From: an uncultured Aminicenantes bacterium
GTDB lineage: Bacteria; Acidobacteriota; Aminicenantia; UBA2199
Direction of reading: 5' to 3'
Assembly: GCA_965195285.1 (NCBI GenBank)
Contig: CBDAFS010000030.1
Location: 1 to 64,000 of the forward strand
DNA length: 64,000 bases
The position numbers were made by a program, and so were the translations under genes. Below, one piece after another: positions 16,523-47,666 of this stretch. The first letter of the stretch is position 1. Each line of letters starts with the position of its first letter. The notes under the pieces were generated by a model. The model was not told the DNA's origin and made no database searches. It saw nothing but the letters and a program-made list of their open reading frames with translations.

Positions 16523-18280
16523 TTAATTTTTATTAATTTTGTATATTTCATAATAATTTTTCTTATACACTAATTCCGCATTATTGTTTAAATACCTCAT
16601 TAAATCATCACCAACATGGTCATTTTTATAAGCAATATAGGTGATAATCACATAAGAACCTTTTGGTAATAATATTTTTCTTTTTTGATTGACTGTCAGA
16701 AATTTTTTATCTGTAAAAACAGATTCATAATAACCGGTTGATATACTAAATATTTTTTCATTTTGAGGGATATTCTTATTGATGAATCTAAAGAAATCTT
16801 CTTGCTCACTTTTTAAGTCTTTTTTCGAGAACGTTTCATACCCATTAATAGAAAAAATAAATTCATCACTAATTCCTTTTATAGTAAGTCTATAAATAAA
16901 AACAGTAGTATTTAAAAAATTTATAATTAAAAAAAATACTACAAATCCTGAAAAATACATTTTCTTATTTATTCTCTTCTCTTTTTTGATAATATTCGTA
17001 ATAATAATTGATAATAAAATATAATTTATAATAATTGAATAAGTCAAATTTCTTGTACTTATAGCAAAATAAGAAAATATCCACCATGAAGTAACAATAC
17101 AAGAAAAAATAAATATTGTTTTTTCAAATAAAGTAACCTTTTTATAATTTATCAAGTAATAAAAAATTATTATTGAGAAAATTACTAAGTTGAAAGTAGA
17201 AAAAAAACTATTTATATGAGCTAATCTATTTGACAATGGTATATTATGCAGCATTTGACTTGATGAACTACTTAATCTCCAGAAAGTTCTCCCAATATCA
17301 TCTATTTGGTATCCTTGGATAATCCCCCAGAAAAACACAACAAAAAACCATAAAAGAATTGTATAAAAAAGTAGGTTAACATTTCTTTTAATATCTTTAT
17401 TTCTGAAAAGAATACTTCCAATAATAAGAATAAGAATAAAAAACAATAGTTGCAGTTTTGTGCTTGCTGCTAATGCAAATAATAATGCAATAAAAAAAGT
17501 ATATTTTTTTTCTTGCTTTTTAGTCCACAAAAATATCGCAATTACAAAAGGCAAAAAAGCCGGAATTTCACCAAAACCACTGGATGCAACAAAAATAATT
17601 GATCGATCTGATATAAATAGAATTAAAAATATCAGAAAGCATTCTAAAGAATATTTATTATTGATTAAATACATTAAAAACAATAGTAATATCAAAGAAT
17701 AAATAAGGACAACAATTCTTAATGAATATATTGAGAAACTTGTAAATGGTTTGATTAATAAAAAAGGATAATAAATCAGTTGTAAGAATAATGAAGGACT
17801 TTCACGAGATGGAAAACTAAACTTACCTTCTGTATAAAAACTTTTTACTGAAGATATATAATATCCTTCATCGGCTCCCACATCATTGTTAAATGTAAGA
17901 AAAAGGCACGTTCCAATAAAAATAATTAAACATAACCCAATTAGAAATATTATAAATTTTTTCTTTTTTAATAAATTATAAATCCTTTCCCAATTTAGTA
18001 ATTGTAATTGCGCATAAAACTTGGAAACAATTAATTCAATACTTCTTTTAAATTTTAATATTAAAATTAAGCTTATATTTACAAAAAATAATAAAATTAA
18101 AATTTTTTTAATTTTAGATCTAACAAAGTCAATAGTAGTTGGCTTTATCACCTTATCTTTTGAAAAATATAATGCACTCTCAAGAATAAAATCTTTTTCT
18201 ATTGAAATCGATAATATTAATAAAATAATAATCAGAATAAAAAAGCAAAAAAGAATTTTAATAATATTATTTTTTTTCAT
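16523..18280 (-). CDS. Polytopic membrane protein, probable GT-C glycosyltransferase
   Basis: DE motif in first loop (GADEGYY), GE..A, ASTK, soluble C-terminal tail; very AT-rich. Confidence 0.6.
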   Translation of the reverse strand: MKKNNIIKILFCFFILIIILLILSISIEKDFILESALYFSKDKVIKPTTIDFVRSKIKKILILLFFVNISLILILKFKRSIELIVSKFYAQLQLLNWERIYNLLKKKKFIIFLIGLCLIIFIGTCLFLTFNNDVGADEGYYISSVKSFYTEGKFSFPSRESPSLFLQLIYYPFLLIKPFTSFSIYSLRIVVLIYSLILLLFLMYLINNKYSLECFLIFLILFISDRSIIFVASSGFGEIPAFLPFVIAIFLWTKKQEKKYTFFIALLFALAASTKLQLLFFILILIIGSILFRNKDIKRNVNLLFYTILLWFFVVFFWGIIQGYQIDDIGRTFWRLSSSSSQMLHNIPLSNRLAHINSFFSTFNLVIFSIIIFYYLINYKKVTLFEKTIFIFSCIVTSWWIFSYFAISTRNLTYSIIINYILLSIIITNIIKKEKRINKKMYFSGFVVFFLIINFLNTTVFIYRLTIKGISDEFIFSINGYETFSKKDLKSEQEDFFRFINKNIPQNEKIFSISTGYYESVFTDKKFLTVNQKRKILLPKGSYVIITYIAYKNDHVGDDLMRYLNNNAELVYKKNYYEIYKINKN

Positions 18281-18328
18281 AATATAATTTTGTTGATTTT
18301 AACAGAATATTTAAAAAGAAAAATTATT

Positions 18329-19792
18329 TTACCTATAATTTAAATTATTCTGACTATTTACTTCAAAGTTTATTGCCTCTTTTACCATAGCTTCAGATAT
18401 AAAAATAAAAATAATAATAAAATAAATGTTAGAAGCTACTCCACCATATGAAAAAAATTGATAGCTTGTAAAATGTAGTAAAAGCATTCCTCCAAAAGCA
18501 AAAGAAAGAACCAGAAGCGGCTTTTTAAAATGATTGTTATTGGATAGTCTTCTTTTTGTTGATAAAATCATTCTTAAATAGCTTATCCAAAAAAACAAAA
18601 ATATTATAAAACCAACTATCCCGCCTTGTAATAATAAGTTAAAATTCCCAACATGACCATCGGCATACTTTCGATAAGTATCAGAAAAACCCCATCCGAA
18701 AATTGGATTTTTAGTAAAACCCTCGAGTACCTTTGGCAGACGGACATCAATTCTGCGTAGTGTACCTCCTGCGGTAACATCCCCTTCAAGAAGCATTTCA
18801 ACGGTAGCCAAACGTTTTGTTGAATACTCTATTCTATAATCCAAACGTGGGACAAATTTATACAGTAGGATTGCGATAAAAAACATCAATCCTATCAGAG
18901 TTATCACATGCCGAATATCTTTCCTAAAAAAGATCAGATAGAATACAAAAATTGAAAGAAACATAATAATCCAAGATCTTGTTGCAGAAAGGTAGGCCAA
19001 TAATAAGCAGATCGTTATTATCAAATAAAGATATATCTTACTGCCTTTATAATCTTTTTTTATACTAAAAAATAGTGAAAATATATAACAGAAAAAAACC
19101 AACATTGGAGCAACTGTTAGTCTAATGAAATCATAATATCCTTCTGAAGCTGATAATTCTGCTAACGAGAATTCACTTACACCTGATAACCAGTTCCCAA
19201 ATTTACTCCCTGTAAAAAGTTGGAACATCTGACTGAAGAAAAGAAAGAAAATGATCGGGAGAATTAAATGAATAAATGTATATATTTCTTCCTTACGATA
19301 CACTAGTAAAGGAAATGATATGAAAATTAGAAAAACAAAAAATATTTTTACATAATAATTTAAATTTTTATAATCGATTCCAAAGCTGAAGGTCAACAAC
19401 CATAAAAATAAAAAATAAAATAAAATAAATAATAAGGGATTTCTAAGTAATACTCTTGTACGCCTTCCCTTAATTAAAGATTTAAAGAACGAAAATATGA
19501 AGAAAAAATGAAAAAAAGTAAAAGTTAATCCTGGTACTATAGTATAATTAGGTATACCTTTAATTCCTCTTGAATATTCGCCATGAAAAAGAGCTCCGGG
19601 TTCATTTATTATTAGAAATACCAATGCAAACCAGAAATAATCTTTCTTGGATTTCCAAAACAAAAACAACAATACTAAAAAATATAAACGTGAGATCGTA
19701 ACAGGTACAAAGTAAACAAAAAGAACCGAAGCAAAAAATATAAAATAAAATTCTAATAATTCATTTTTAAAATGTCTATTTTCTAATTTCAT
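18329..19792 (-). CDS. O-antigen ligase/polymerase family (Wzy_C) protein
   Basis: SATRSW, R....F.KNPIFGWG, GHVGNFNLLLQGGIVG. Confidence 0.78.
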   Translation of the reverse strand: MKLENRHFKNELLEFYFIFFASVLFVYFVPVTISRLYFLVLLFLFWKSKKDYFWFALVFLIINEPGALFHGEYSRGIKGIPNYTIVPGLTFTFFHFFFIFSFFKSLIKGRRTRVLLRNPLLFILFYFLFLWLLTFSFGIDYKNLNYYVKIFFVFLIFISFPLLVYRKEEIYTFIHLILPIIFFLFFSQMFQLFTGSKFGNWLSGVSEFSLAELSASEGYYDFIRLTVAPMLVFFCYIFSLFFSIKKDYKGSKIYLYLIITICLLLAYLSATRSWIIMFLSIFVFYLIFFRKDIRHVITLIGLMFFIAILLYKFVPRLDYRIEYSTKRLATVEMLLEGDVTAGGTLRRIDVRLPKVLEGFTKNPIFGWGFSDTYRKYADGHVGNFNLLLQGGIVGFIIFLFFWISYLRMILSTKRRLSNNNHFKKPLLVLSFAFGGMLLLHFTSYQFFSYGGVASNIYFIIIFIFISEAMVKEAINFEVNSQNNLNYR

Positions 19793-26773: not shown

Positions 26774-27187
26774 TCAGGATTTCATTTTTTTATTAATAAG
26801 TCTAATGTTTATTAAATGAAAAATAATAAAGGCAAAAAGAACTCCAATAATATTGAATATGGAATCTATTATATTAAATCGTCTACCGGGAATAATTTGA
26901 TGATAAAACTCGATAAAAAAGGCAAAACCGATACCAATGATAAGAAATAAAATCAAGGACTGTAAATTTTGTTTGGGTTTGTCGTTTATAATCCATAATA
27001 AAAATAATATCGACAGGATAAAAAATTCAAGAAAGTGGATGAGATAGTCGAGACGGATGGTAGTACCTCCTGAAGTTTTGATCTTTGGAGTAGGAAGCTG
27101 GGGAAGAGAAGAAGCGATGAAGATGAGAATGAGCCAGGTGAAGAAGAGAAGTTTTGAGTTTTGTTTAATAAATTTGAGTAAGATCAT
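26774..27187 (-). CDS. VanZ-family membrane protein
   Basis: IFIASSLP, DYLIHFLEFFIL, E..Q..IPGR, D...N..G; start taken at ATG 27187 because the upstream codons are repeat-derived. Confidence 0.8.
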   Translation of the reverse strand: MILLKFIKQNSKLLFFTWLILIFIASSLPQLPTPKIKTSGGTTIRLDYLIHFLEFFILSILFLLWIINDKPKQNLQSLILFLIIGIGFAFFIEFYHQIIPGRRFNIIDSIFNIIGVLFAFIIFHLINIRLINKKMKS

Positions 27188-27196
27188 TTTATTAAC

Positions 27197-27420
27197 ATTG
27201 AATAATGAATATCGAATAACGAACACCGAATATCGAAGGAAAGAAATATCTTACAAACCTTGAAATTTAAACATCGAACAAAGAATAATAAATGTTGAAG
27301 GAAAAGAATCATCTTGAAAACATTGAATAATGAATATCGAATAACGAACACCGAATGTTGAAGGGAAAAAACATATTATTCATAGTGAATCATGAATATC
27401 GAATATCGAATAGCGAAGTG
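27197..27420 (+). repeat. Left arm: degenerate heptamer arrays (GAATATC/GAATAAC/GAACACC family) in about 60-nt blocks
   Basis: Visible tandem 7-mers; exact 38-nt direct repeat at 27194-27231 and 27319-27356. Confidence 0.9.
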
Positions 27421-27427
27421 AAAAGGC

Positions 27428-27799
27428 TCATTTTATATTATCATGTGCTGTTTTTATACTGGAAACAAAAATTGAAATCAGTTCATTGCATTCGAGTATA
27501 AGATCATCTACTTTATCGGAATGTTTAACAAGCGGTTTCCTTTTAATAATTTTCAGTGCAATGTATGTTTCTCTCAATTCCTTGAGTGCGATTTTCATTT
27601 TATGGATAAAATCTTTTCCGGACTCTGCACTCTGGGCCTCACCATATATTAAAGCAGGAGCAGTTCCGGACCTGATTATTTGACCTCCGATATAATTTCC
27701 ATTTCTTGTATTTGGCAACTGTTCAGCTAAACTTAATATATTAACAGAAAAAGAAATCAATCTTTCTTCCAAATCATATTTTTTTTTCTCATCAATCAT
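27428..27799 (-). CDS. Four-helix-bundle protein (TIGR02436 / 23S-IVP / Avd-like)
   Basis: DLEERL..F, QIIRSGTAPAL.YGEAQSAES.KDFIHK.KIALKELRET, E.NELISIF. Confidence 0.93.
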   Translation of the reverse strand: MIDEKKKYDLEERLISFSVNILSLAEQLPNTRNGNYIGGQIIRSGTAPALIYGEAQSAESGKDFIHKMKIALKELRETYIALKIIKRKPLVKHSDKVDDLILECNELISIFVSSIKTAHDNIK

Positions 27800-27932
27800 G
27801 CTTCAAAATTCATTATTCAATTTTTATCTTTTTACATTTCGTCATTCATTATTCATCATTCGATATTCGATATTCATTGGTTGATAATACTTCATCATTC
27901 CTTGTTCGACATTCGTTATTCGATATTCAAAA
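27800..27932 (-). repeat. Right arm: reverse-complement heptamer arrays (GATATTC/ATTATTC/GTTATTC)
   Basis: Inverted relative to 27197-27420. Confidence 0.9.
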
Positions 27933-30080: not shown

Positions 30081-30150
30081 AGTAAGTAGTAGGTAGTAAA
30101 AAGTAGGTAGTAAGAAGTAGGTAGTAAGAAGTAAGTAGTAAGAAGTAAAA
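30081..30150 (+). repeat. Heptamer array (AGTAAGA/AGTAGGT) x10
   Basis: Ten consecutive AGTA-NNN units. Confidence 0.95.
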
Positions 30151-30177
30151 AAATAAACGATTTTCTGAAGACAATAT

Positions 30178-30567
30178 TTACTCCGTAATAATGCAAAACT
30201 TTTCAGGCTTATTTATCATTCCAAAAAGAATTCTTCCGAGTTCCTGATATTTTTCATACAATTTCGTATGCTTTTCTTCCTGAAGATATCCATGTTTGAA
30301 AGCAAAATCCAGCCATACTTCTGTCTCACTTGCTTCTCCGATCGAATCGGTTAATTTTAAAACAAAAGATTTCGGATATCTTCGCTTCGCCCATGCTTCA
30401 GTAATGTTAGCGGAAACAGATCGTGATGATCTTCTGATCTGATCAATTAAAGAATATTTTTCTTCTTTTGGAAAAGTTTTACTGATGTTGAAGATTTCAA
30501 CCGCTAGATCAAAACTCAACTGATATGCAATCAGATCTCTGTAACCCCGATACATAGTTTTTTCCAT
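30178..30567 (-). CDS. Four-helix-bundle protein (TIGR02436)
   Basis: YRDL.AYQ, FPKEEKYSLIDQIRRSSRSVSANI.EAW.KRRY, GEASETEVWL. Confidence 0.95.
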   Translation of the reverse strand: MEKTMYRGYRDLIAYQLSFDLAVEIFNISKTFPKEEKYSLIDQIRRSSRSVSANITEAWAKRRYPKSFVLKLTDSIGEASETEVWLDFAFKHGYLQEEKHTKLYEKYQELGRILFGMINKPEKFCIITE

Positions 30568-30571
30568 TATG

Positions 30572-30668
30572 TACTTCTCACTCCCTACTCCTTACTTCTT
30601 ACTTCTTACTTCTTACTTCTTACTCCTTACTTCTTATTGTTTTTTTTCTACTTACTATATACTACATA
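30572..30668 (-). repeat. Heptamer array (TACTTCT) x9 plus TACATAC-type units, inverted to 30081-30150
   Basis: Nine units at 30572-30634; further units run up to the epimerase stop codon. Confidence 0.95.
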
Positions 30669-31823
30669 CTAGATTTTATAAAATTCTTTATACCATTCCA
30701 CAAATTTTCGAATTCCCTCTTCCACCGGGGTATCCGGCCTGTATCCGGTATCCTTTTCAAGACTGGTGGTGTCAGCCCAGGTTTCCAACACATCGCCTTT
30801 TTGCAGGGGAAGGAAGTTTTTTTTGGCTTCTTTATTCATGGCCTTTTCAATAGCGGTGATGAATTCCATCAAGTTTACTGGTTTTCCTCTGCCAATGTTA
30901 TAGATTTTATACGGGGTGAGGAGCGAGAGGTCGGAGGTGAGGGGCTGGGAGTCTTCGAATGTCGAATGATGAATATCGAACGCCGAATTTCGAGTTTTTG
31001 ATTTTTGATTTACTTCTGAATTCGATATTCGGGATTCGTGATTCGGTGTTCGAAGATTGGGAGTTGGTGGTCTGTCCATAACCCGGGTGATGCCTTCGAT
31101 GATGTCATCGATATAGGTGAAATCCCGGCTCATCCGGCCCTGGTTGTAGACATCAATAGGCCGGTTTTTAATAATGGCCCTGACAAATTTAAAAGCCGCC
31201 ATGTCCGGCCGACCCCAGGGACCGTATACGGTAAAAAAACGAAGCCCGGTGGTGGGAATTTGGTAGAGGTGGCTGTAGGCATGGGCCATGAGCTCGCAGC
31301 TCTTCTTGCTAGCCGCATACAGAGACATGGGCTGGTCTACCATATCGGCCGTGGTAAAGGGCATTTTTTGGTTTAGGCCGTATACCGAAGAACTGGAAGC
31401 ATAGACCAGATGGTTGATCTCATGGTGGCGGCAGGCCTCCAGGATGTTCAGAAAACCTTGGATGTTGGAGTCCATATAAGCCTGGGGATTTTGCAAAGAA
31501 TAGCGCACCCCGGCCTGGGCTGCCAGGTGGCAGACCCGGTCGAATGGTTCTTGTTCGAACAGTTCGGTTATTTTTTCCCGATCCTCCAGGTTTAATTGGA
31601 TAAACCGGTAATTGTCAAGAGTCTGGCTTTCCACGGGGATTCCATACTGAATTTTCTCCGAATCGATTCCGGTGTCCTTCAGCCGGCCGTATTTCAGGTT
31701 GACATCATAGTAGTCATTGATATTGTCCAGGCCTATCAGCGTATGACCACTGTTTGCCATCTGTTTGACCAGGGAATGGCCGATGAATCCGGCGGTTCCA
31801 GTTATTAAGATCTTCAAGGTCAA
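30669..31823 (-). CDS. NAD-dependent epimerase (UDP-glucuronate 4-epimerase-like) with an in-frame repeat-derived insertion
   Basis: ITGTAGFIG, HLAAQAGVRYS, YAASKK, FFTVYGPWGRPDMA, RDFTYIDDI; TTG start with AGGAG RBS. Confidence 0.93.
   Translation of the reverse strand: MTLKILITGTAGFIGHSLVKQMANSGHTLIGLDNINDYYDVNLKYGRLKDTGIDSEKIQYGIPVESQTLDNYRFIQLNLEDREKITELFEQEPFDRVCHLAAQAGVRYSLQNPQAYMDSNIQGFLNILEACRHHEINHLVYASSSSVYGLNQKMPFTTADMVDQPMSLYAASKKSCELMAHAYSHLYQIPTTGLRFFTVYGPWGRPDMAAFKFVRAIIKNRPIDVYNQGRMSRDFTYIDDIIEGITRVMDRPPTPNLRTPNHESRISNSEVNQKSKTRNSAFDIHHSTFEDSQPLTSDLSLLTPYKIYNIGRGKPVNLMEFITAIEKAMNKEAKKNFLPLQKGDVLETWADTTSLEKDTGYRPDTPVEEGIRKFVEWYKEFYKI
30952..31056. mobile_element. 105-bp palindromic heptamer-repeat insertion inside the epimerase CDS
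   Basis: Ends TCTTCGAA...TTCGAAGA; arms of GAA-N4 7-mers; removal restores a GGAGTTG heptamer and keeps the frame. Confidence 0.8.
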
Positions 31824-31839
31824 GGTCTCCTTATATCAT

Positions 31840-31925
31840 AGGTTAAGGTTGAGGTTAAGGTAAAGAAAAAAACAGAAAATTTTTCCTGATTATCTCTCTT
31901 ATTCTTTTCCTTTATCTTTACCTCA
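31840..31925. repeat. Hexamer (AGGTTA/AGGTAA) array with inverted partner
   Basis: 31840-31865 versus 31909-31925. Confidence 0.7.
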
Positions 31926-32106: not shown

Positions 32107-33075
32107 CTATCTTCTGAATTTTTTTAATTCCCGCTCAAATCCATCAATCATCAGTTTTATTTCATGGTTCTCAATGGATTCCAGCATAAAACGCCTTACC
32201 ATCTGGGAAACCGCCACATAATCCATTTCCACCAGTTCCCCGATCTCCCGCAGCCGCAGGTCACTGTATTTCTTCAAACCATACAGGAACAGCTTTCGGA
32301 AGTGGTTGTTTTTGCGCTTTTTGTACAGCAGCTCTCTTTTAACCCTGAAGCGCCGGCATATGATGCGGGAGATATCTTCGGGTTGGAGCCGCCTCAGACT
32401 CTTCAGGGCCGGTTTTTCCCGGATCTCTCCCATTCTCAGGTCAGCCTCTATCTTGCGGGCAATCTTTCGGCGAAATTTTTCACCGCCTACGATCGACTGC
32501 ACCCCGTAGAAATCTTCTTTTTTTATCCCCTCATCCTGATTCAGCAGGTCATAGACATACTTGCGGTAAAATTTCTTTTTGTTATTAAATTCGCTCAGGA
32601 GTTCGGCGGTGACCAGCCATAGCGGCCGTTTTTCTCTGCCGATGTAGCGGGCAAAACTGCTCCAGGGGTAATCTTCGGGTTTTTTAACCTTACCCTCCCG
32701 CAACGGGGTCAGGTGGATGTAAGCGCTCAACCTCATCAAATAACCGTTTTTTTCCACCAGAACGGCCCGGTAGCGGCCCTGGAAAACCGAGCCCTTGACC
32801 CCGTACTTGAGCTTGAACCAGTTTGAGTAGCTGGAGTTTAAATGGTGCATACAGCGGGAGAGATTGCCCTCCGGGGTTTCGATGAGCATGTGGAAACGAT
32901 CGTCCAGAAGGGTATAGCAGTGGACCTTGAGGTTGAACTTATCCACCACCTCGCCGGTTTTTTCCAGGAATTTCAGCCGGTCAACCTTTTCATGAAAAAT
33001 CTTCTCATGCTTGTCTCCCTGGGACATCACATGGTAACAGGCGCCCTTGTACTCTATACGGGGTTGTCGAGCCAT
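32107..33075 (-). CDS. REP-associated tyrosine transposase (RAYT, Y1_Tnp) with C-terminal DnaA_C-like HTH; HUH motif degenerate
   Basis: MARQPRI, YHV, G.VFQGRY, YIHL.P, YPWSS; C-terminal LREIGE...DYVAVS; RFH replaces HxH. Confidence 0.88.
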   Translation of the reverse strand: MARQPRIEYKGACYHVMSQGDKHEKIFHEKVDRLKFLEKTGEVVDKFNLKVHCYTLLDDRFHMLIETPEGNLSRCMHHLNSSYSNWFKLKYGVKGSVFQGRYRAVLVEKNGYLMRLSAYIHLTPLREGKVKKPEDYPWSSFARYIGREKRPLWLVTAELLSEFNNKKKFYRKYVYDLLNQDEGIKKEDFYGVQSIVGGEKFRRKIARKIEADLRMGEIREKPALKSLRRLQPEDISRIICRRFRVKRELLYKKRKNNHFRKLFLYGLKKYSDLRLREIGELVEMDYVAVSQMVRRFMLESIENHEIKLMIDGFERELKKFRR

Positions 33076-33153: not shown

Positions 33154-33479
33154 AGGTTGAGGTTAAGAAAGAAGGTTAAGGTTGAGGTTGAGGAAAAGAA
33201 AAAAACCACTGGTCATTAGAACTCTCTGGGGACTTGTCATTATATCTATCAAGTTCTTGTCATTGAAACCCTCTGATTTTGGTCATTAAGAACTATCATA
33301 ACATATCATTACAGTTCTCCAGGGTTCTTTATGACGCACGCATTATGTGCTAATGACAAGCTCTCTATAGATCTTAATGACACGAGCGAAGCGAGTAAAT
33401 GACCAGATTAGTGATATTCATCTTCAAAACTTCTTATCTTCTGAACTTCTGTCTCCTTAATTCTAAGGTTAAGGTTAAG
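33154..33479. repeat. Composite element A, copy 1: hexamer array + GTCATT/ATGAC 22-24 nt periodic array + CTTCT octamers
   Basis: GTCAT at 33212, 33236, 33259, 33282 (variant at 33305); ATGAC at 33331, 33353, 33377, 33399; homologous to 47336-47666. Confidence 0.85.
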
Positions 33480-34878: not shown

Positions 34879-35661
34879 ATGTATATGCGTTTGCTTCAAT
34901 TAAAAATTAAACCCGAAGGCCTTGAACTGGCCCAACATTATTACAAAGACACGGTGGTGCCCCGGTTACGCACCATGCCGGGATGCCGGTTTGCCCGGCT
35001 GATCCAGAACCACTCCGAGCCCAGTGATTTGATATCCATGACCCTGTGGGAACGCCGGCAAGATGCCGAGGCCTTCCAGCAGAGTCCGGTCTTCAAGCAG
35101 ATGATGGCCGAGTTTTCCGTATTTTTAGCCGATAGTTCGGTCTGGAAGATACAGTTGAGCCAGAAGCTGGAACTGGAATACCGGCCCAAAACCCAGGAAC
35201 CGGTGACCCAGGCCTTCCCGGTATCCACCCAGAAAATCCTGGTCAAGCCGGAAAATTGCGTATCTTCACCTCTGTTTGTGCGCATTGTCCAGCATAAGAT
35301 CCAGCCGGGTAAAATGGAAGAATTCCGGAAACTGTACCGGGAAAGCATTATTCCCGTTCTGGAAAAAACCCGGGGCTGCTGTTCGGCCTATCTGATGGAA
35401 AACATGCAGAACGGCGAAGAAGTGGTGTCCATCACCGTCTGGGAAAACCAGCGGGCTGCGGAAGATTATGAACAGAGTGGACAGTTTCAGGTATTGATCG
35501 ACCGGGTCAAACACTGCTACACACGGCTCTTTCAGTGGAAAATGTCTTTGGCCCAAAATGGGGAAAAGCAGGCCAAGACCAGCGATGATATGCAGGTGGA
35601 TCATTACACCGTGGTTTCAGGGGAGGAGTTTGGGGATTCACCAACAAAAAACAGGACTTAG
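34879..35661 (+). CDS. Tandem antibiotic-biosynthesis-monooxygenase (ABM) domain protein
   Basis: Two repeats of R....KI.P...Y....P.L....GC..A.L....SxT.WE....AE.(Y/F); GGGAGG RBS. Confidence 0.8.
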   Translation: MYMRLLQLKIKPEGLELAQHYYKDTVVPRLRTMPGCRFARLIQNHSEPSDLISMTLWERRQDAEAFQQSPVFKQMMAEFSVFLADSSVWKIQLSQKLELEYRPKTQEPVTQAFPVSTQKILVKPENCVSSPLFVRIVQHKIQPGKMEEFRKLYRESIIPVLEKTRGCCSAYLMENMQNGEEVVSITVWENQRAAEDYEQSGQFQVLIDRVKHCYTRLFQWKMSLAQNGEKQAKTSDDMQVDHYTVVSGEEFGDSPTKNRT

Positions 35662-36172
35662 GTTAAGGTAAAGGTAAAGGTTGAGGTTAAGGTTAAGAAA
35701 AAAAATAAAACTATTAAAACCTCCTTAATTTTCATATCTCTTTACCTTTACCTTTGCCTCAACCTTAGAATTAAGAAGTCAGGAGATAGAAATCCGAAAT
35801 CCCAAATTCTAAATCCGAAACAAAGAGATTATTAATAAACATTGAATGATGAACACCAAATATTGAATGATGAATATCGAATAACGAACACCGAATATCG
35901 AAGGAAAGAAATATCTTACAAACCTTGAAATTTGAACATTGAACAAAGAATATCGAATGTCGAAGGAAAATAATCATCTTAATTAACAGTGAATGATGAT
36001 CACCGAATGTCGAATCATGAATGTCAAAGTGAAAGATTCATTTTTTTTTACACTTCATCATTCCTTGTTCGTTATTCATTATTCGAAATTCAAAATTAAA
36101 TACTATTTTCCTTTACCTTAACTTTTGCCTTTACCTTTACCTTTACCTTTACCTCTACCTTTACCTTTGCCT
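35660..36172. repeat. Intergenic repeat mosaic: hexamer hairpin, AAATCCG heptamers, gene-less four-helix-bundle cassette, hexamer array
   Basis: Modules at 35660-35767, 35790-35824, 35841-36095 and 36110-36172 fill almost the whole space between two convergent stop codons. Confidence 0.88.
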
Positions 36173-39100
36173 TTATTTTACCTTTAGTTCAAAGCTCTGT
36201 GAATGGCTGTTAAACTCCGGGGCATACATGCATTCGATGTGGGCCATGCCGCTCTGAAACCGGCCCCGGTGTACCACCCGAAGGGAATATTCAAACACAT
36301 AGGTCCCCTTGGGCAGGTAATCAATGAAAAAATGGGTGGCTGTATCCAGGGTGGATTCGTAATAAGCCAGTCCGTCCTGGAACTTATATCGGGATAGCAC
36401 ATTCACCGGTTCCAGGCCGCTGCCCCGATGGTCTTTCATATGGACATACTCCATATCCCGGTCGGTTCGCAGCTCGATCCGGACCACTAACAGATCACCC
36501 ACCCCCAGGCTCCCTTGATAGGGTTCGATCATCGGTCCTTTGTCGGTGAAGCGGCGCACAAACAGGCGCTTCTTCAGTTTCAGGGGATTTCCGGTATGGG
36601 GGGTGATTTTTGAGATATCTTCCAGGTACTGCCAGTGAACCCCGCCCCAGGCAATGCCCTTGTCCTTTTTGGAAACCGTAATCCGGCCCATATCCGCAAT
36701 AATATCCCGGGGCTGATAGACCTTTTCATAGTAACCGGTCCCGGCTTCCGGTTTTTCGATTTCCACCTTTTGGCCACCCAGGGTGACCTCTACCGGTAAA
36801 TCCGAAGCCAGCAAGTCGTCTCCCCGCAGCAGCACCGCATACACCGCATCGGCAGTGGCCTTGGTGGTTTTCCAGTCCCGGGCCTGCTTTTGTTTCAGCA
36901 GCCACACCTTACATTCCTCAACAGCCTGGTGGTCTCCCATTACTTCATCAAAGGCCTCGATCATCACGGCCTGGGTTTCGATGGGAGCCCGGAACCACCA
37001 CCAGGACAGTTCCGTTTCCCGCCAGTAACGGCCTAATTCCTCATTGAACCGGCTCCTTTCCTTGATGGAATGCATGATTTTACGGGCAGTTACCGAATCC
37101 CCGAAGCGGTTCAGGGCCAGGGCCAGCTGGGCCTGATTCTGGCGATGGCTCAGCTTCAGCCAGTACTCACGGGCCTGTTGGAGAAAATAATCCACGGCTT
37201 TCTGGTATTTTGAAGAAAGCGGATGCTTTTTCAGATAATAACTGCGGCCGTACAGGTACAGGGCAACCCGGGAACCCAGATTATTGGATTTCAGATGTCC
37301 CCTGGACACAATACGGTTGTAGACTTCCAGGATCCGGTTATCCAGGAACCGGATGGCTTTTCCGGTCAGGTCAAGGGGAATGTCATCCACGCCCAGGTGT
37401 CGGAGCCGGCCGAAACCGGTAACAATATAGAGAGTAATATAATGGTTACCCGGTCCCCCCGGAAACCAGGGCCAGGAGCCATCACTCAGCTGCATGTCTT
37501 CTAATTTCAGGTAGGCGCGTTTCAATTCCCGGTCCAGTCGGTTTTCATCGAAGAGCAGGCCGACCCGGTGTTTGGCCTGGGTTTCATTTTGGGCCTGCCT
37601 CACCCAGGGGCTTTCCCGCAACAACACACTTTTCAGATCCGGGTTTTTTTCCAGGTTGGACTTCAGAGCCCCGCTTGCCTTCCAGCGGTTAAAAATCCGG
37701 TGGATTCGGGGATCGGAATGGGCGATGTGGCGGGCCAGGCCATTGGCATAGAGCCGGTTGAATACCTGCTCGGAACACTCATGGGGAAATTCCATCAAGT
37801 AAGGCAGGGCCTGGACCGCATACCAGGCCGGATTGGAGGTCATCTGAACGGTCAGTCCTTTGTGAACCAGGGTTTTAGAGCCGGAGGAAAGGGACAGTTT
37901 TCTGAACTCGAACCGTTTTTCCCCCTGCTTGCTGATCCACAGGGGTATGGATTCCCGCACCAACAGCCGGCGGCTCAAAACCGGCAGAACTCCCTCTTCG
38001 CCGTCAGAATATTCTTCAGTGGCACCCACGGCCCGGAAAGCCACCATATCCAACCCATCCGGGACCTTAATCCGGAATCTCAGGGTCCGGGACTGTTTGG
38101 AGGGGATGGAGAAGGTCTGGTCTTTATCCCGGTTGTTCAGGGAATCATCCAGGGAGGTTTCATTCTGTGGATTAAAAAATTGGAGCCTCAATGACCCGCT
38201 TTCCGGTTTATCCGACATATTGGTTACCTTTACGGTGAATTCGAGCTCATCACCCTCCCTTAAAAACCGGGGCGGGTTGGGCTGGACCATGAGGTCCTTG
38301 CGGGTTATGGAGCGGCCTTCGATGCTGCCGTATTTCATATCAATGGTATGCGCAAAACCGATAAACCGCCATTCGGTCAGGGCTTCGGGCATTTTAAATT
38401 CAATGGTCACGGACCCGTCCCCGGCGGTCTTCAGATGGGGATAAAAGAAGGCGGTTTCATTTAAATTCTTTCTGGCCTGGACTTTGGAAAGATCAATTTT
38501 TTTTCCACCCTTATCCCTGTCTCCATTTCGTTTTGTCTCCTTTATGGTGGCATCCTTTCCTCCGGAAACTCCGTTAATATCTTCGTATGACAGCACCAGG
38601 GCCTCCCCAAGCGCTTTACTGAACATTTCTTCGGGCCTTAACACCTTCTGTTTGCTGACATGTCGTCTGGACCCGTACTGGTAACCGAAGAGGCTCTGGA
38701 TCACCTCTTGGGGAAAGTGCGCATAATTGGCTGCTGAATATGAATAGCGGACATTCAGGCGGTTGATAAAATTTGAGAAATCAATCCCTTGGTTGGAAAA
38801 CCGCAAACGCAGGGAAGTACTGTCCGCATCGAAAAGGTTTGAAAAACCCTGAAAAAAATGGGGATAGTACTGGTCCAGTGACACATCATAGAGGGTGGCC
38901 ACCATTTCCGCGGCCCTGATTTCAGAACCCGGACCCTTGATCTTAAGAGACCAGGTTTCCTTCTGGCCCGGTTCCAGGGTGGAGCGGAAGGTCTGCCACT
39001 GGAGTTGCAGTTGTTTGTTATACCAGGGCACATAGACCCGGGTGGTGGTTTGATACTGGCGATTCTGCTTGACCAGGGTGGCTACCAGGGTAAATCCACC

Positions 39101-42100
39101 CCGCAATTTTTCATCGATGGGAATCCTGATCAATCCCTGGGTCTGGCCCGGAGAAGTCCAGGATTTTTTCAGCCATTGGTTATCCTTGAATATTTCAATC
39201 AGCACCGGTCCCTGTTCATAACCGGTCCCCCACAGGGCTTCGAAGGTCTCACCTACCGGCAGCACCGCCTGTTTAACGGTAAAATAAAAAGGCAGTTTTA
39301 CTGGAAAATGTTTTTTATCCTTCTGGTGAACTAAAAAATGCAAATAGGCCCGTACCGGGTTTCCATACCGGTCCTGGCTGGTCAGACAGGCCCGGTATAC
39401 CCCCGGTTTTAGTTTGGCTTTCACTTCACAGGCATGACCGGAATTTTCTGAAGTCCGGAAAGCCTGTTTGAATACCCGGCGGCCCGAGGGCCATTTTTTC
39501 CAGTCCGGGGAATCTCTGAAGTTTCCCGGCTGGTCCGGAGAAGCGATTTCCATCTCCCGAATACCCACTTCACCAATCAGGTCGCGGGGAACAGGTTGTG
39601 AAGGCCCTTGCAAGGCGAAAATCTCAACGTTTCCCACAGCCCCTGTTCGCTGACCATTGAGATTGATGGTATTGACAGTAATGCATACCGGGCGGTCCTG
39701 TTCCTGCCAGTTCTGGCAATTCAGGGAGGCTTCCATTGAGGTATAACCCAAGCGTACCCGGGTTTCATCCCCCCTGGTCTCCCCTGCCCCATCGGTCACT
39801 TCAGCCTGGAGTTTAAATGAAAAAACCGGTTGGCTGGAACGAGGTAGGCTGAGATCAGGCCGGGCCCTGAAGGTAATACAGAACTTACCGCTTTTATCGG
39901 TTTTCAGGGTACCGTGGATGATTTCCCGGGCTTCAGCCCGTTGTGGCCCCCTGTGCCAGTAATACCACCAGTTGGGGAAGCGGACTTCACGCACCACCCG
40001 GTAACTGACCCGGGCATGGTCGATGGGGGCCCCGGTGTAGCTGCGAGCCTCACCGCAGACCGTTACCCGGTCATTCAGGCGGAACTCACGGTCGGGCAGC
40101 TTCAGATCGACCTGAAACTTGGGCCGTTTATAGGCTTCCACCCGGATGGCAGTAACACCCCGGGGAGAATCGGCAACCAGGGTCATCCGGCCGGTCAGAC
40201 GGTCCCGGGGAGCCATGAAGGTTCCACTGAAACTGCCAAAATCATTGGAAACCAGTTTCTGCCGGGCAACTTCCTGGTTGTTGACATCCCGAATACTGAC
40301 TCCAACCCTCTGGTTGGGAAAAACCCGGTAATTATGAGTCCGGGGATCCAGCTCCAGGCAGATGCCCTTGAAGCTGATCATTTGACCCGGGCGGTAGAGT
40401 GAACGATCGGTGAAGAAAACGGTTTTAAAGCTCCGTTTTTTATGAATTGAATGACCGGGGGAAAGCCCGGTATCGCAATATAATCCGAGCCGGTCGGAGG
40501 TTATTGTCACCAGGCGGTTGTAATTGGTTTCAGACCCGCTTTTTTGTTCCCTGAAATATCCCCTCGTATCGGTATGCAGGAGCTGTTGTTCATGATATGC
40601 CCGGGACTGATAGTCGTAACGGTAAATCCTGACCGCTGCCCCGGAAGCGGGCGTACCGGAAACCGCATCCAGGACATAACCTTCAAAAATTCGATTTCGA
40701 CCCCGCAGTACCAGGGCCACCCGGCTGACCCAGAGCGGGCTGCTCTGGATTTTATTGGAAGTATCGTTAAAATCCTCTTTATAACTGGCCAAAATCCGGT
40801 AAAAACCCGGGCTCATGGCCGGGACCTCAACAGACTGCTTCCGGCTCTGGTAATCCTCGGTAGGCTTCAATGAAACCGACCATTCTGCCATTGGTTTTTC
40901 AGTCAGCATCTGCCGGAGTACTGATTCGGGTAATCGGTTAAACTGTTTTTTATTTTTCCCCTGGAGATAGTCTTGCAAGTTGTCCCGGACAATTCTGAAG
41001 TTCACTGTCCGGATATTTTTATATTCCACTGTGAACCAATAAGGTTGATCCGGTATGATGACTTTTTCAGTCTTCAGATGAAACTGCTTTTCCTTGATCC
41101 GGGACAGCAGGGCCAGACAATTCTGTCCACCGCGGGATTTGGAAAAATTTTCATGGCCACGGCTGGCAATCTTAACAGCCTTTATTAACTTTCCCTGTTT
41201 TTTCAACTCATGAGCCCGGTAATAAGCGGCCAGACTTGACAATCGGGAATCGGGATAGCTCGACATGATTTCCTGTAACCGCTTGCTATAACGATCGGCT
41301 ACCGCCTCTCCAACGGCTTCATTTCGGACATACCTGAGGCGGTGAATATCAATATCGATGAAGGCATCCCGGGTTTTATCATGCCGGTGAAAAAGCATGA
41401 GCTTCTGATAGAGCCGCAGGGCTAAATAACGGGGAGAATCGGTATCAATGGTTTTGATGTTCCAGGCCATGAATTGGGGGGCCGGGGCCAGGGCCGGGCT
41501 ATCGGACCGGATATCAAAGGCCTGTTCGGGTCTCGCCGCAACCTGTTCACCGGAACTGTAAAAACGGAGAGCCTCCTGGGCCACAAAATCATACAGGGTC
41601 GGACGCAGGCCAATGGGAAGGCTTCCCTTGACTAAGAAATCGTAATAACGATCAACGGGAATTTTTTTCAAGCGGTTCTCGTCCTTTAAAACAGCCTTGA
41701 AGAGTGAGGAAATCTCATCAAACAATTTTGGCAGGTCCCAGGTGGTAAAATCCTTTTCATTCAGCCCGGCTGTACGGGAACGGTTCAGAAAACGCCAGCG
41801 ATTGCGGGAAAAATAATGCCAGTACCACTGGGCCTGCACCACCTGCATCAGGGGTCTCATTTCCGGCCGGACCTGTTCAATCTCCGCTTTCAGCCGGTTA
41901 ATTTTTTCCTCGGGCCGGTTGCCCTCGATCACCGATTCCAGAACGATTCGCTGGACAAGGGCCTTCAGGGCCTCCGCCTGTCGGTTCTGATCCAGAGCCA
42001 GATTGTATATGCGGTTCAGGTATTTTATCGCTGTTTTGGGCAGTCCGTCTTTTTCGGCCTGGTTGACTTTTTTCCATAACACCCGGGGGTCGGTTTCCCT

Positions 42101-42184
42101 GATATCTCCCTGCTGGCCGATTCCCTGGGACAGCATCAGGACGATTAAAAAAATACAGATAGTAATAAACCTGAATTTGGTCAT
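36173..42184 (-). CDS. Bacterial alpha-2-macroglobulin family protein
   Basis: Signal peptide, FTDRSLYRPGQ (MG2), YKRPKF, R.NLNETAFF, PRFLREGD, thioester motif CSEQ, YAPEF; GAGGAG RBS. Confidence 0.95.
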   Translation of the reverse strand: MTKFRFITICIFLIVLMLSQGIGQQGDIRETDPRVLWKKVNQAEKDGLPKTAIKYLNRIYNLALDQNRQAEALKALVQRIVLESVIEGNRPEEKINRLKAEIEQVRPEMRPLMQVVQAQWYWHYFSRNRWRFLNRSRTAGLNEKDFTTWDLPKLFDEISSLFKAVLKDENRLKKIPVDRYYDFLVKGSLPIGLRPTLYDFVAQEALRFYSSGEQVAARPEQAFDIRSDSPALAPAPQFMAWNIKTIDTDSPRYLALRLYQKLMLFHRHDKTRDAFIDIDIHRLRYVRNEAVGEAVADRYSKRLQEIMSSYPDSRLSSLAAYYRAHELKKQGKLIKAVKIASRGHENFSKSRGGQNCLALLSRIKEKQFHLKTEKVIIPDQPYWFTVEYKNIRTVNFRIVRDNLQDYLQGKNKKQFNRLPESVLRQMLTEKPMAEWSVSLKPTEDYQSRKQSVEVPAMSPGFYRILASYKEDFNDTSNKIQSSPLWVSRVALVLRGRNRIFEGYVLDAVSGTPASGAAVRIYRYDYQSRAYHEQQLLHTDTRGYFREQKSGSETNYNRLVTITSDRLGLYCDTGLSPGHSIHKKRSFKTVFFTDRSLYRPGQMISFKGICLELDPRTHNYRVFPNQRVGVSIRDVNNQEVARQKLVSNDFGSFSGTFMAPRDRLTGRMTLVADSPRGVTAIRVEAYKRPKFQVDLKLPDREFRLNDRVTVCGEARSYTGAPIDHARVSYRVVREVRFPNWWYYWHRGPQRAEAREIIHGTLKTDKSGKFCITFRARPDLSLPRSSQPVFSFKLQAEVTDGAGETRGDETRVRLGYTSMEASLNCQNWQEQDRPVCITVNTINLNGQRTGAVGNVEIFALQGPSQPVPRDLIGEVGIREMEIASPDQPGNFRDSPDWKKWPSGRRVFKQAFRTSENSGHACEVKAKLKPGVYRACLTSQDRYGNPVRAYLHFLVHQKDKKHFPVKLPFYFTVKQAVLPVGETFEALWGTGYEQGPVLIEIFKDNQWLKKSWTSPGQTQGLIRIPIDEKLRGGFTLVATLVKQNRQYQTTTRVYVPWYNKQLQLQWQTFRSTLEPGQKETWSLKIKGPGSEIRAAEMVATLYDVSLDQYYPHFFQGFSNLFDADSTSLRLRFSNQGIDFSNFINRLNVRYSYSAANYAHFPQEVIQSLFGYQYGSRRHVSKQKVLRPEEMFSKALGEALVLSYEDINGVSGGKDATIKETKRNGDRDKGGKKIDLSKVQARKNLNETAFFYPHLKTAGDGSVTIEFKMPEALTEWRFIGFAHTIDMKYGSIEGRSITRKDLMVQPNPPRFLREGDELEFTVKVTNMSDKPESGSLRLQFFNPQNETSLDDSLNNRDKDQTFSIPSKQSRTLRFRIKVPDGLDMVAFRAVGATEEYSDGEEGVLPVLSRRLLVRESIPLWISKQGEKRFEFRKLSLSSGSKTLVHKGLTVQMTSNPAWYAVQALPYLMEFPHECSEQVFNRLYANGLARHIAHSDPRIHRIFNRWKASGALKSNLEKNPDLKSVLLRESPWVRQAQNETQAKHRVGLLFDENRLDRELKRAYLKLEDMQLSDGSWPWFPGGPGNHYITLYIVTGFGRLRHLGVDDIPLDLTGKAIRFLDNRILEVYNRIVSRGHLKSNNLGSRVALYLYGRSYYLKKHPLSSKYQKAVDYFLQQAREYWLKLSHRQNQAQLALALNRFGDSVTARKIMHSIKERSRFNEELGRYWRETELSWWWFRAPIETQAVMIEAFDEVMGDHQAVEECKVWLLKQKQARDWKTTKATADAVYAVLLRGDDLLASDLPVEVTLGGQKVEIEKPEAGTGYYEKVYQPRDIIADMGRITVSKKDKGIAWGGVHWQYLEDISKITPHTGNPLKLKKRLFVRRFTDKGPMIEPYQGSLGVGDLLVVRIELRTDRDMEYVHMKDHRGSGLEPVNVLSRYKFQDGLAYYESTLDTATHFFIDYLPKGTYVFEYSLRVVHRGRFQSGMAHIECMYAPEFNSHSQSFELKVK

Positions 42185-42310: not shown

Positions 42311-42695
42311 AGGTTTAGGTTAAGGTAAAGGTAAAGGTAGAGGTAAAGGTAAAGGTAAAGACGTGAAACGTAAAGAGTAAAAGGTGAAGACGTAAGGCGT
42401 AATACGTAAAGCGTAAAATGTGATTGGTAATTGGTTAACTGTAGGGGCGAATGGAAATTCGCCCAATTGTTTATATCGATTTTTCATATTGGTTGTAATA
42501 ATCATCTCTTTCAGGGCAAACCGCCGTTTGCCCCTACAACAATTTTTCTCCTAATCTAAATTTGTTTTTGTTTTGAATTTTGGACATTTGAGTTTTGAAT
42601 TTGTTTCGGATTTAGAATTTGGGATTTCGGATTTGTTTCTTCTGGATTCTTACTTCTGAGTTAAAGGCAAAGGTAAAGGTAGAGGTAAAGGTAAA
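42311..42695. repeat. Intergenic repeat mosaic with GTAG REP doublet
   Basis: Hexamers 42311-42360, CGTAA heptamers 42361-42417, REPs 42441-42464 and 42514-42537, heptamers 42600-42634, hexamers 42664-42695. Confidence 0.88.
42441..42537. mobile_element. REPIN-like doublet of GTAG-family REPs
   Basis: GTAGGGGCGAATGGAAATTCGCCC ... GGGCAAACCGCCGTTTGCCCCTAC. Confidence 0.85.
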
Positions 42696-42872
42696 AAGAA
42701 AAAATTGGCGGGCGTAGCAAACTATCTCCGGAACGGCTTGTGAAACCATTTTCTCGAATATCGAAAAATGGTGGAACGCTCACAAAAATGAGAACATTTT
42801 TGTGTAAAGTGAAGGAGATGTTTGTGAAAGCCCGGAGGAGTTCTATAGCTGACTCAAAGGTTGAGAATGTTC

Positions 42873-46479: not shown

Positions 46480-46699
46480 AGGTTAAGGTAGAGGTTAAGG
46501 TTAAGAAAAAAATTGTTGTAGGGGCAAACGGTGGTTTGCCCGAATCAGAAATCTATTACAAATTGATCAAAAAAGAATAGGGCGAATTTCCATTCGCCCC
46601 TACAGTTAACCAATTACTAATCACATTTTACGCTTTACGTATTACGCCTTACGTCTTTTCCTTTACCTCTACCTTTAACTTTACCTTCACCTTAACCTC
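46480..46699. mobile_element. REPIN-like doublet (46518-46603) nested between inverted hexamer arrays; inverted copy of 42387-42545
   Basis: 46580-46657 is the reverse complement of 42387-42464 with one mismatch. Confidence 0.88.
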
Positions 46700-46710
46700 A
46701 GTTTATTTTC

Positions 46711-47271
46711 TTAATCGATTCCCAGGAGGTCATCCTTGAATCCCTGGCCCGGACCCGGTTTGGGACCGATCCAGCAGGCAAAGAGCGCATCGGCAAATGC
46801 CTTGCCTTTAATGATGCCTTTGAAGGATTTCTTAACGGTGACCTTGGTGCCCTTTCCCGGGATATAGGTGAAGGCAATCCGGTCTCCGTCCTTGACATCT
46901 TCCATCCAGCTACAGAGTTTTTCGAATTGTTTTTTCAATTCAGGTGAATGATTCGGAGTATTGGCTTCCAGGCCATCCATCCATGCTCCATTGAGCTTCT
47001 TTTTTCCCACACTGCGCAAAAAATGCATGAGGTTCCGGCGCATTTTATCCGCTTTTAATATCTTGTCGGCGTCTTTCTCCTTTTCGGGAAGGTAGAGGCC
47101 GTCCACATAAACTTTGAATACCACTTTTTTTCTCAATGCCATGCCGTTGAGAACCAGCTTGGTCCCCTCCACGGTCACGGTGTTGGGCATTTCCACTCCT
47201 TTAAAGGTCGCTGAATAAACCGGCAGGACCATAGTCAGGATAAGCAAAAGCAGCCATAATTTTTTCATCAT
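46711..47271 (-). CDS. Chalcone-isomerase-like exported protein
   Basis: Signal peptide, LVLNG.ALRKK..FKVYV.GLYL, WIG.KP; start at 47271 after AAGGAGG. Confidence 0.88.
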   Translation of the reverse strand: MMKKLWLLLLILTMVLPVYSATFKGVEMPNTVTVEGTKLVLNGMALRKKVVFKVYVDGLYLPEKEKDADKILKADKMRRNLMHFLRSVGKKKLNGAWMDGLEANTPNHSPELKKQFEKLCSWMEDVKDGDRIAFTYIPGKGTKVTVKKSFKGIIKGKAFADALFACWIGPKPGPGQGFKDDLLGID

Positions 47272-47335
47272 TTTTCCTCCTTTCAAATCGTACTGGTTGT
47301 TCAGAAGAATGGTAGTATGGAGAAAAATAAAAGTC

Positions 47336-47666
47336 AAGGCTGAGATTGAGGTAAAGGTAAAGGCAAAGGTAGAGGTAAAGGCAAAGAAGGAAAACCGCTG
47401 GTCATTAGAACTCTCTGACTTTTGTCATTTAGAACTATCATAACTTGTCATTGAAACTCTAAAGAACTTGTCATTAAAAAACTATTATAACTTGTCATTA
47501 TAGTTCTACAGAGCTCTTAATGACGTGAACGCAGTGAACTCATGACGCATGTTTTACATGCTAATGACGCACGCATCGCGTGCTAATGACACGAGCGAAG
47601 CGAGTAAATGACAAGTTGATTTGTTCTTAACTTCAGAACTTCTTATCTTCTGAATTCTAAGGTTAA
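47336..47666. repeat. Composite element A, copy 2
   Basis: GTCATT at 47401, 47424, 47447, 47470, 47494; ATGAC at 47520, 47542, 47564, 47586, 47608; 29-mer identical to 33375-33403. Confidence 0.88.

Follow-up and report, generated by a model that had tools for sequence, protein, structure and literature searches.

How a palindrome built of 7-nt repeats comes to lie in frame inside the gene of a sugar epimerase is the question raised by one locus of an uncultured Aminicenantes bacterium (GenBank assembly GCA_965195285.1, a draft genome of 3.28 Mb in 62 contigs, 42% G+C and 94.9% complete). The window analysed here is a stretch of 64,000 nucleotides, positions 1-64000 of contig CBDAFS010000030.1 (C30), in which the epimerase gene occupies 30669-31823 on the minus strand and the palindrome, a 105-nt heptamer hairpin, occupies 30952-31056. 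We put at roughly 65% the probability that an epimerase loop with an existing heptamer tract received a copy of the genome's own heptamer-array DNA, and that the copied block persists there as an in-frame passenger.

The epimerase gene and its hairpin

The 384-aa open reading frame (ORF) that hosts the hairpin matches Pfam family PF01370 (E 6.5e-54), and its nearest solved structure is PDB 5u4q (E 2.8e-128). The Rossmann motif GTAGFIG (GxxGxxG) and the catalytic motif YAASK (YxxxK) are both present and are invariant in the alignment of relatives, features by which the protein is classed as an NAD-dependent sugar epimerase of the short-chain dehydrogenase/reductase (SDR) type. Relatives are annotated in their sources as UDP-glucuronate 4-epimerase, a name that we take as putative for the substrate. 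Orthologues with 57-58% identity are present, among the matches listed, in two 'Candidatus Aminicenantes' genomes, and the gene is housed in a polysaccharide locus. An NCBI-sourced protein of 382 aa has the same loop, so the depositors' annotation likewise reads the epimerase gene as intact. Strain differences from the window fall at third codon positions in 30 of 36 listed cases (a further 65 lie outside the list), and in a hairpin-bearing contig from sequencing run X3 they do so in 12 of 13 cases on the N-terminal side of the insert and in 7 of 10 on the C-terminal side. Judged by its open frame and by this signature of purifying selection on both flanks of the insert, the gene is shown to be alive.

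The insert comprises 15 units and 35 codons (residues 257-291); its first base is the third of codon 256 and its last the second of codon 291, and stop codons are lacking from two of the three sense frames across it. On the plus strand, the left arm (30952-30989) consists of GAA-N4 units and the right arm (31019-31056) of N4-TTC units, both recovered by an inverted-repeat search; the T-rich centre between them (30990-31018), detected by repeat search and by Tandem Repeats Finder (TRF), holds two TTTTTGA units and one TACTTCT-like unit. TRF calls period-7 tracts at 30955-30993, 30995-31011 and 31020-31045, and a genome scan for self-matches at lag 7 marks 30955-31075. The arms are 38 nt each with a 29-nt spacer and are 74% complementary, their 38 pairs being made up of 28 Watson-Crick, six G-T, two A-C and two other pairings, with the outermost eight bases perfectly complementary. 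Each unit keeps GAA and varies at its other four positions of seven, and one half is inverted relative to the other. All of this is in agreement with the preliminary description of the locus, which saw here a 105-nt, 35-codon palindrome of GAA-N4 heptamers, and the frame is kept through the ORF. The block folds significantly as plus-strand DNA (-18 kcal/mol, z -3.15, equalled by 0 of 200 shuffles), as RNA in the sense of the mRNA, from the minus strand (-28.1 kcal/mol, z -4.83, 0 of 200), and as RNA of the plus strand (-41.4 kcal/mol, z -3.11, 1 of 200).

The hairpin is situated in the variable loop preceding the YKIYNIG strand, as the same description had placed it, and there it is real, lineage-specific and in frame. 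In an AlphaFold (AF2) model of the epimerase, residues 256-304 have predicted local distance difference test (pLDDT) scores below 50 and no secondary structure, and the insert is accordingly predicted to be a disordered loop. This model, built on a 15-row alignment, has a mean pLDDT of only 65.9 with several core segments low as well, and we used it solely for the disorder of residues 256-304.

Insertion into an older tract and turnover of the loop

On either side of the loop, alignment is obtained with eleven orthologues from related genomes, ten with loops of about 10-26 residues and the eleventh, from the same genus, with a heptamer array of its own. The insert is absent from all 11 and from PDB 5u4q, which aligns as two blocks with query residues 257-289 facing chain residues 242-246. 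The length of the loop was also measured more widely, as the number of codons separating the DF(T/S)Y and YK.YNIG motifs in 149 loops parsed out of 160 fetched loci. It is 71 codons here and 36 without the hairpin, and among the orthologues it is 39 codons in 95 of the 149 and 58-60 in four. The preliminary description had named a long loop shared by distant orthologues as grounds for rejecting its reading; they do not share it, 145 of the 149 having 25-42 codons, and the reading withstands this check. These alignments show the 105-nt block to be an insertion, which explains the long loop.

Repeats misassemble easily, and in a draft of 62 contigs an assembly artefact or a chimeric contig has to be considered. 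Two separate assemblies nevertheless span the hairpin unbroken, namely a 2,528-nt contig from run X1, perhaps the source sample, and a 3,761-nt contig at depth 192 from run X3, which belongs to another study; the frame is moreover exact, and we regard an artefact as extremely unlikely. Run X4 gave very uneven, short, high-depth pieces, from which no inference was drawn.

The insert lies within a G-rich (on the coding strand C-rich) heptamer tract, which occupies 30913-30951 on the C-terminal side of the loop and 31057-31066 on the N-terminal side, both parts being seen in the sequence and by lag-7 self-match. This self-match is 27 of 42, against 12-18 at the other lags from 3 to 11, and is reached by 7 of 10,000 shuffles at lag 7 and by 68 when all lags between 3 and 11 are allowed. 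TRF makes no call on the tract. The host array proposed earlier is real but degenerate. That it is older than the insert, as had also been proposed, is borne out by the same-genus orthologue (G001), which has at this place a homologous array of 19 heptamer units including the identical unit GGGGCTG (plus strand), and within it a 63-nt duplication (9 units, 21 codons, 92% identity). A further relative, P0004, has in common with the window gene just the C-terminal, LTSD-type part of the loop, which fits an older host tract and a younger inner insert.

Deleting 30952-31056 rejoins GGAG and TTG into a unit identical to its neighbour, as first described. The accompanying statement that there is no obvious target duplication is unsafe. 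Sequence comparison reveals a 7-nt direct repeat on the plus strand, TGGGAGT, that brackets the block at 30946-30952 and 31058-31064, and this repeat is ambiguous because the host units are themselves tandem, so that it may represent either a target duplication or two host units. A 105-nt element with a 7-nt duplication would have added 112 nt, which would disrupt the reading frame.

Among strains 3-5% apart the insert varies. The X3 contig retains the hairpin, and a 5,571-nt contig from run X2, of the same study as X3, shows 36 differences in an alignment of about 1,070 bases (flanks about 97% identical) and carries an allele in which 126 letters are replaced by 69 others, a difference of 57 nt or 19 codons that is in frame and no multiple of 7. 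Between species the protein outside the loop is 73-91% identical among relatives whose loop fillings differ or are absent. P0005 and P0124 (91% identity over the aligned columns), like P0006 (81%), have 14-residue loops, and P0003, P0123, P0004 and P0007 have loops of 43-61 residues made of other repeat-derived peptides (the loops of P0003, P0004, P0005 and P0007 being known as protein only, not as DNA). These loop peptides are of low complexity, for example LNLNLNLNLRN..., KVEDRRQKTEDR... and IRNPKSE.... All readable loops are in frame. Taken together, these sequences show that the loop has been repeatedly refilled with different pieces of one repeat family, or left empty, across strains and species. 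A C-rich period-7 signal is also found in the loop of distant orthologues, in L123 (a Draconibacterium sp. metagenome-assembled genome, lag-7 match 0.49) and in the metagenome locus L071 (0.45), and suggests that the epimerase loop may have been colonised independently in other phyla.

This turnover bears on whether the insert could be a functional element, that is, whether the hairpin regulates the epimerase, as an mRNA site for RNase III or for a four-helix-bundle protein or as a repeat-length switch, or whether the peptide has a role of its own. Such a role would be in keeping with the significant mRNA-sense fold, with the RNase III excision of ORF-bearing rRNA intervening sequences of a gene family that also occurs beside the epimerase (PMC4990558), and with the setting in a polysaccharide locus, a place where variation is in many cases adaptive. 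Yet the sequence and length of the insert are unconserved in close relatives, some of which are without it, and, with all readable loops in frame and the X2 difference a multiple of three, there is no sign of on/off switching. An excess of G-T over A-C mismatches that would point to one structured strand is likewise not consistent, being six to two in the insert and mixed in nine other arm pairs, and Rfam has no family above threshold for the insert, returning plant microRNA hairpins only, at 21-27 bits against gathering scores of 73-102. We see little chance of a functional element; in all likelihood the insert is a passenger, neutral or of slight cost, and no functional module.

The repeat family and the route into the loop

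Arrays of periods 6 and 7 are in excess in this genome: a scan at one threshold counts 33 segments at lag 6 and 43 at lag 7, as against 1-13 at lags 4, 5 and 8-11, while lag 12, the double period-6 unit, has 26. Contigs C30, C41 and C42 are where these arrays are concentrated. In a search of the genome, stretches of 17-25 nt of the insert are shared, exactly or nearly exactly, solely with other GAA-N4 arrays, namely at 35865-35881 (17 nt, 100%), 27850-27870 (21 nt, 95%) and C39:117726-117750. The second of these lies in cassette 1 (27185-27930, minus strand), in which a gene of family PF05635 (23S-rRNA-IVS-protein, a four-helix bundle) at 27428-27799 stands between inverted GAA-N4 arms, and it upholds the earlier proposal that the insert is built from cassette 1's units. 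In a search for repeat-derived peptides, the best matches of the insert's peptide cover 13-37 aa and lie on other GAA-N4 arrays, some of them with stops. The insert is thereby shown to belong to the genome's own heptamer-array repeat family.

Members of this family are organised as a dispersed layered element, for which seven aligned loci (window 35640-36200 and 42540-42720, C42:555-735, C41:21325-21500, C41:4925-5100, C62:9690-9880 and C39:117640-117830) give the order hexamer array, CAGAAGA-type heptamers, AAATCCG-type heptamers, conserved linker and GAA-N4 heptamers. In this genome the layered repeat is mostly intergenic, and the epimerase insert corresponds to its innermost, GAA-N4 layer only. 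An intergenic counterpart of the insert is the gene-less GAA-N4 hairpin at 35859-36097, nested in hexamer arrays at 35660-35707 and 36101-36186. Some copies of the layered element have a short conserved centre without an ORF. The loop peptide of P0123 follows the same order, with a hexamer layer, a CAGAAGA-type layer and an AAATCCG-type layer, and its best tblastn matches lie on layered elements (C42:560-652, 64.5% over 31 aa, E 3.3e-5).

On the explanation that we favour, the source of the insert would be the repeat family that forms the arms of PF05635 cassettes and gene-less hairpins, and a block of it would have been copied into an epimerase loop that held an older heptamer tract. The copying may have been a transposition-like event, or a templated insertion from a nearby array during repair or replication. 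Selection would have acted as a filter, passing a block whose length can be divided by 7 as well as by 3 and whose frame is free of stops, in a loop tolerant of any length. Later turnover would have drawn on the same repeat family again, through additional insertions, through contractions and through replacements. Because the frame is open and purifying selection acts on both sides, the block is probably translated, as about 35 hydrophilic residues, and would thereby yield new protein sequence.

The same register of repeats could have arisen without any outside DNA, if the heptamer tract in the loop grew by whole-unit replication slippage together with fold-back (template-switch) copying of an arm. 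Host tract, arms and centre share one continuous 7-nt register (105 = 15 x 7), the insert has neither a donor copy nor shared termini, and the G001 array with its 63-nt duplication did grow in place. In contrast, the GAA-N4 units do not resemble those of the host tract, and over 17-25 nt they match cassette 1 and two gene-less hairpins; arms newly made by fold-back should be perfect, whereas arms only 74% complementary are observed in an insert that still varies among closely related strains; and the multi-layer composites of the relatives follow the order of the intergenic elements, which slippage does not make. The unit type foreign to the host tract and these composites argue against pure in-place slippage, and we consider such an origin unlikely.

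A second route to be weighed is that of a non-autonomous transposon, akin to a miniature inverted-repeat transposable element (MITE) or to a repetitive extragenic palindromic (REP) element, mobilised in trans by a Y1 (IS200-like) transposase. A gene with a Y1 transposase domain fused to a DnaA_C-type helix-turn-helix (HTH), identified by domain match, lies at 32107-33075 on the minus strand, upstream of the epimerase at a distance of 284 nt. Members of the IS200/IS605 group of Y1 enzymes work on hairpin DNA without leaving a duplication. The hairpin structure of the insert and this neighbouring gene would fit such an enzyme, and the 7-nt flanking repeat could alternatively be read as a duplication. 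Matches to PF01797, however, number 17 over 16 contigs with none on C42, the contig that has three of the four in-frame heptamer tracts and four of the six PF05635 cassettes of the genome; the insert has no conserved element ends and no near-identical copies; and a 7-nt duplication would have broken the frame. The lack of a donor copy and of shared ends, the imperfect arms and the dispersed Y1 genes argue against a classical transposon, which we hold to be very unlikely. For the Y1 transposase as mobiliser we found no linking evidence, and the distribution of the Y1 genes speaks against it. The Y1 gene is itself flanked by AGGTTA/AGGTTG hexamer arrays in direct orientation, at 31840-31865 and 33154-33193, and at least one other Y1 gene (C31:41374-41712) also adjoins a TTTACC array.

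Copying from the genome's own arrays has in turn to be set against several observations that weigh against it. No second copy of the insert longer than 25 nt was found in the 94.9%-complete genome, in which repeats would assemble poorly, and no donor is therefore at hand even though the insert is young enough to vary among strains 3-5% apart. The other GAA-N4 hairpins start with the conserved linker ending in CATTGAATGATGAA, and the outer ends of the insert differ from these. With ends unlike the linker-bounded ones, the insert does not act as an element with defined termini. The whole 154-nt stretch is in one 7-nt register with the host tract, as in-place array growth would likewise produce. 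The hairpin arms are only 74% complementary. The tblastn support for the P0123 loop is modest, since one of 20 shuffled peptides did as well (E 6.8e-6; the other 19, E at least 0.035). The 69 letters of the X2 allele could be a shortened, diverged hairpin rather than a replacement, and the structural model has low scores in core segments as well as in the loop. The preliminary description had taken the locus as strong evidence that the repeats move or are synthesised as discrete units. Movement of this copy as a discrete unit is not borne out, given the absence of a longer second copy, the differing ends and the ambiguous flanking repeat; synthesis as discrete units is a possibility.

PF05635 cassettes, in-frame tracts and known systems

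Six PF05635 genes were found in the genome, two on C30 and four on C42. Five of the six have repeat arrays directly at the gene or no more than 54 nt away, and inverted arms are confirmed for both genes on C30. Besides cassette 1 these include the cassette next to the epimerase (30083-30636, minus strand), in which a PF05635 gene at 30178-30567 is enclosed by inverted TAGTAAG / TACTTCT heptamer arms at 30083-30152 and 30567-30636 (70 nt, 80% complementary) and which ends 33 nt from the epimerase stop codon. The arm at 30568-30636, adjoining the start of this gene, has TAAGAAG/TAAGGAG-type units on the coding strand and thus places several Shine-Dalgarno-like AGGAG motifs before the ATG. Directly upstream of the epimerase start lies a gene-less hexamer hairpin (31840-31925; DNA fold z -4.57), which aligns arm to arm with a G001 hairpin (L002:1410-1912) whose loop holds a PF05635 gene of about 425 nt (120 aa). 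By this alignment the two are assigned as an orthologous pair of an 'empty' and a 'loaded' hairpin, so that gene-less hairpins can correspond to loaded cassettes.

A genome-wide lag-7 scan of long ORFs finds long (at least 107 nt) heptamer tracts inside four genes only. In addition to the epimerase these are, on C42, a tetratricopeptide repeat (TPR)-like protein of 605 aa (C42:20012-21826, L013:6010-7827), a Wzy_C O-antigen-ligase-type protein (C42:22287-23909, L013:8285-9910) and a 325-aa protein (C42:26887-27861, L013:12885-13862). The three lie in a polysaccharide locus with the four PF05635 cassettes of C42 interleaved, and their tracts, of 120-270 nt, are direct arrays and not hairpins. 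The tracts of the 605-aa and Wzy genes have 131 nt in common at 82% identity, with further related, mostly intergenic copies on other contigs; like the layer order of the P0123 loop, this is evidence that DNA of the family is copied and pasted. The heptamer tracts of all four genes are absent from their orthologues. A scan at a lower threshold gave 14 in-ORF segments at lag 7 as against 19 and 10 at the control lags 8 and 10, and segments of about 50 nt were dropped as noise; at a higher threshold there were 11 in-ORF candidates, of which five A/T-rich runs (C22:1566, C30:19392, C31:155388, C40:86484 and C45:5614) were set aside as low-complexity.

For each of the four tract genes a PF05635 gene is found at a distance of 205 to about 1,500 nt. 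Out of 77 period-7 segments, 12 fall no farther than 1 kb from one of the six PF05635 genes, against an expectation of 0.32. It is tentatively possible that PF05635 cassettes locally write heptamer-array DNA into adjoining genes, the arms, or the machinery that builds them (possibly their own Avd-like four-helix-bundle protein), seeding tracts within about 1.5 kb, and selection keeping those that are in frame and free of stops in tolerant loops. A point against this association is that the four tract genes occupy two loci, so that it reflects two neighbourhoods and not four independent events. If it is true, the cassettes would be a local generator of new protein sequence, and the very large PF05635 family would be linked with the excess of 7-nt repeats in bacterial genomes. 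A route like that of a diversity-generating retroelement (DGR), with an Avd-type four-helix bundle and a reverse transcriptase, is unlikely, since PF00078 was not found in the 94.9%-complete genome.

To our knowledge, in-frame insertions of palindromic repeats are textbook knowledge for Rickettsia only. The Rickettsia palindromic elements (RPEs) are hairpin repeats of about 100-150 bp that lie in frame in unrelated enzyme genes and are read through in a manner compatible with the fold (PMC10969869, a review, and Ogata et al. 2000 as covered there). The insert resembles them as a tolerated 105-nt hairpin block inserted in frame in a gene that stays open. RPE families have many similar copies encoding a conserved peptide, whereas the insert is a unique copy with an unconserved peptide; its arms are, unlike those of RPEs, arrays of variable 7-nt units, and the in-frame tracts of this genome cluster beside PF05635 cassettes instead of being scattered. 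As to defined termini and a target-site duplication, the 7-nt flanking repeat is equal to a host-array unit and thus ambiguous, and the outer ends differ from those of other GAA-N4 hairpins. The likeness to RPEs drawn in the preliminary description is therefore apt as an analogy for a tolerated in-frame hairpin, but it does not extend to multiple similar copies or a conserved peptide.

The short tandemly repeated repetitive (STRR) sequences of cyanobacteria are heptanucleotide simple-sequence repeats (SSRs). Like such heptamer SSRs, the repeats described here are tandem 7-nt units, with a genomic excess of period 7, and are mostly intergenic. They differ in their heterogeneous units, inverted arms, layering with other unit types and tie to a cargo gene family, and an SSR in the sense of one direct unit changing by slippage is not what is seen, given the inverted halves and the 57-nt difference of the X2 allele. 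Known heptanucleotide SSRs include the long SSRs of Mrazek et al. 2007 (as cited in PMC4679880) and the TAACTGA repeats of the Beggiatoaceae (PMC4679880), and are single-unit direct runs mostly just before start codons.

ORF-bearing intervening sequences (IVSs) of 23S rRNA encode S23p/PF05635 proteins, as in the Coxiella burnetii IVS (PMC4990558), and PF05635 proteins are relatives of Avd (PMC10053308). The six cassettes of this genome resemble these as long hairpins whose loop is occupied by a PF05635 gene, and the insert uses the unit family of cassette 1 in inverted arrays. In contrast to an IVS cassette, the insert is without a PF05635 ORF, its centre being only 29 nt long, and it is embedded in a gene that codes for protein. 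RNase III excises an rRNA IVS without re-joining, and an mRNA so cut would not survive as a message. With PARCELs, the palindromic amphipathic repeat coding elements, the insert shares the character of a coding repeat with dyad symmetry in the DNA, of a kind thought to shuffle in genomes and to add variable protein sequence. PARCELs, however, are a defined 25-residue tandem motif in proteins of unknown function, whereas the insert consists of heptamers at the DNA level, in an enzyme loop and without a protein motif. REP elements are of 20-40 bp with conserved GTAG or CGTC tags and high copy number and are associated with REP-associated tyrosine transposases (RAYTs) of the Y1 type (PMC3733652). 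The insert is like the REP/RAYT system in being a small palindromic repeat with a Y1-domain gene adjoining, and unlike it in its length, in the lack of a high-copy identical hairpin and in the dispersal of the 17 Y1 matches.

No literature linking PF05635 genes to heptamer arrays or to in-frame tracts was found, in a search whose coverage excludes subscription journals, nor any match for three features: a loop refilled by layers of one element, the placing of all long in-frame tracts beside PF05635 cassettes, and a gene-less hairpin orthologous to a gene-bearing one. New at this locus are thus the link between PF05635 genes and tracts, the layered element, and the orthologous pair of loaded and empty hairpins. 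The locus is a clean case of in-frame palindromic repeat insertion, from an uncultured lineage of sediments. Should the local link hold across genomes, it would offer a testable handle on the origin of heptamer arrays, on the function of PF05635 proteins and on the passage of repeat DNA into protein sequence.

Elsewhere in the window, a 2003-aa alpha-2-macroglobulin-type gene and its neighbours (36173-42184, 42317-42695 and 46480-47386) are spaced by long AGGTAA/TTTACC hexamer and heptamer arrays, and nearly all intergenic spacers from 35.6 to 47.4 kb are filled by arrays of these two kinds. The region 17000-19500 is unlike the remaining window in being very A/T-rich, with many short A/T repeats (TRF rows 17001-19523).

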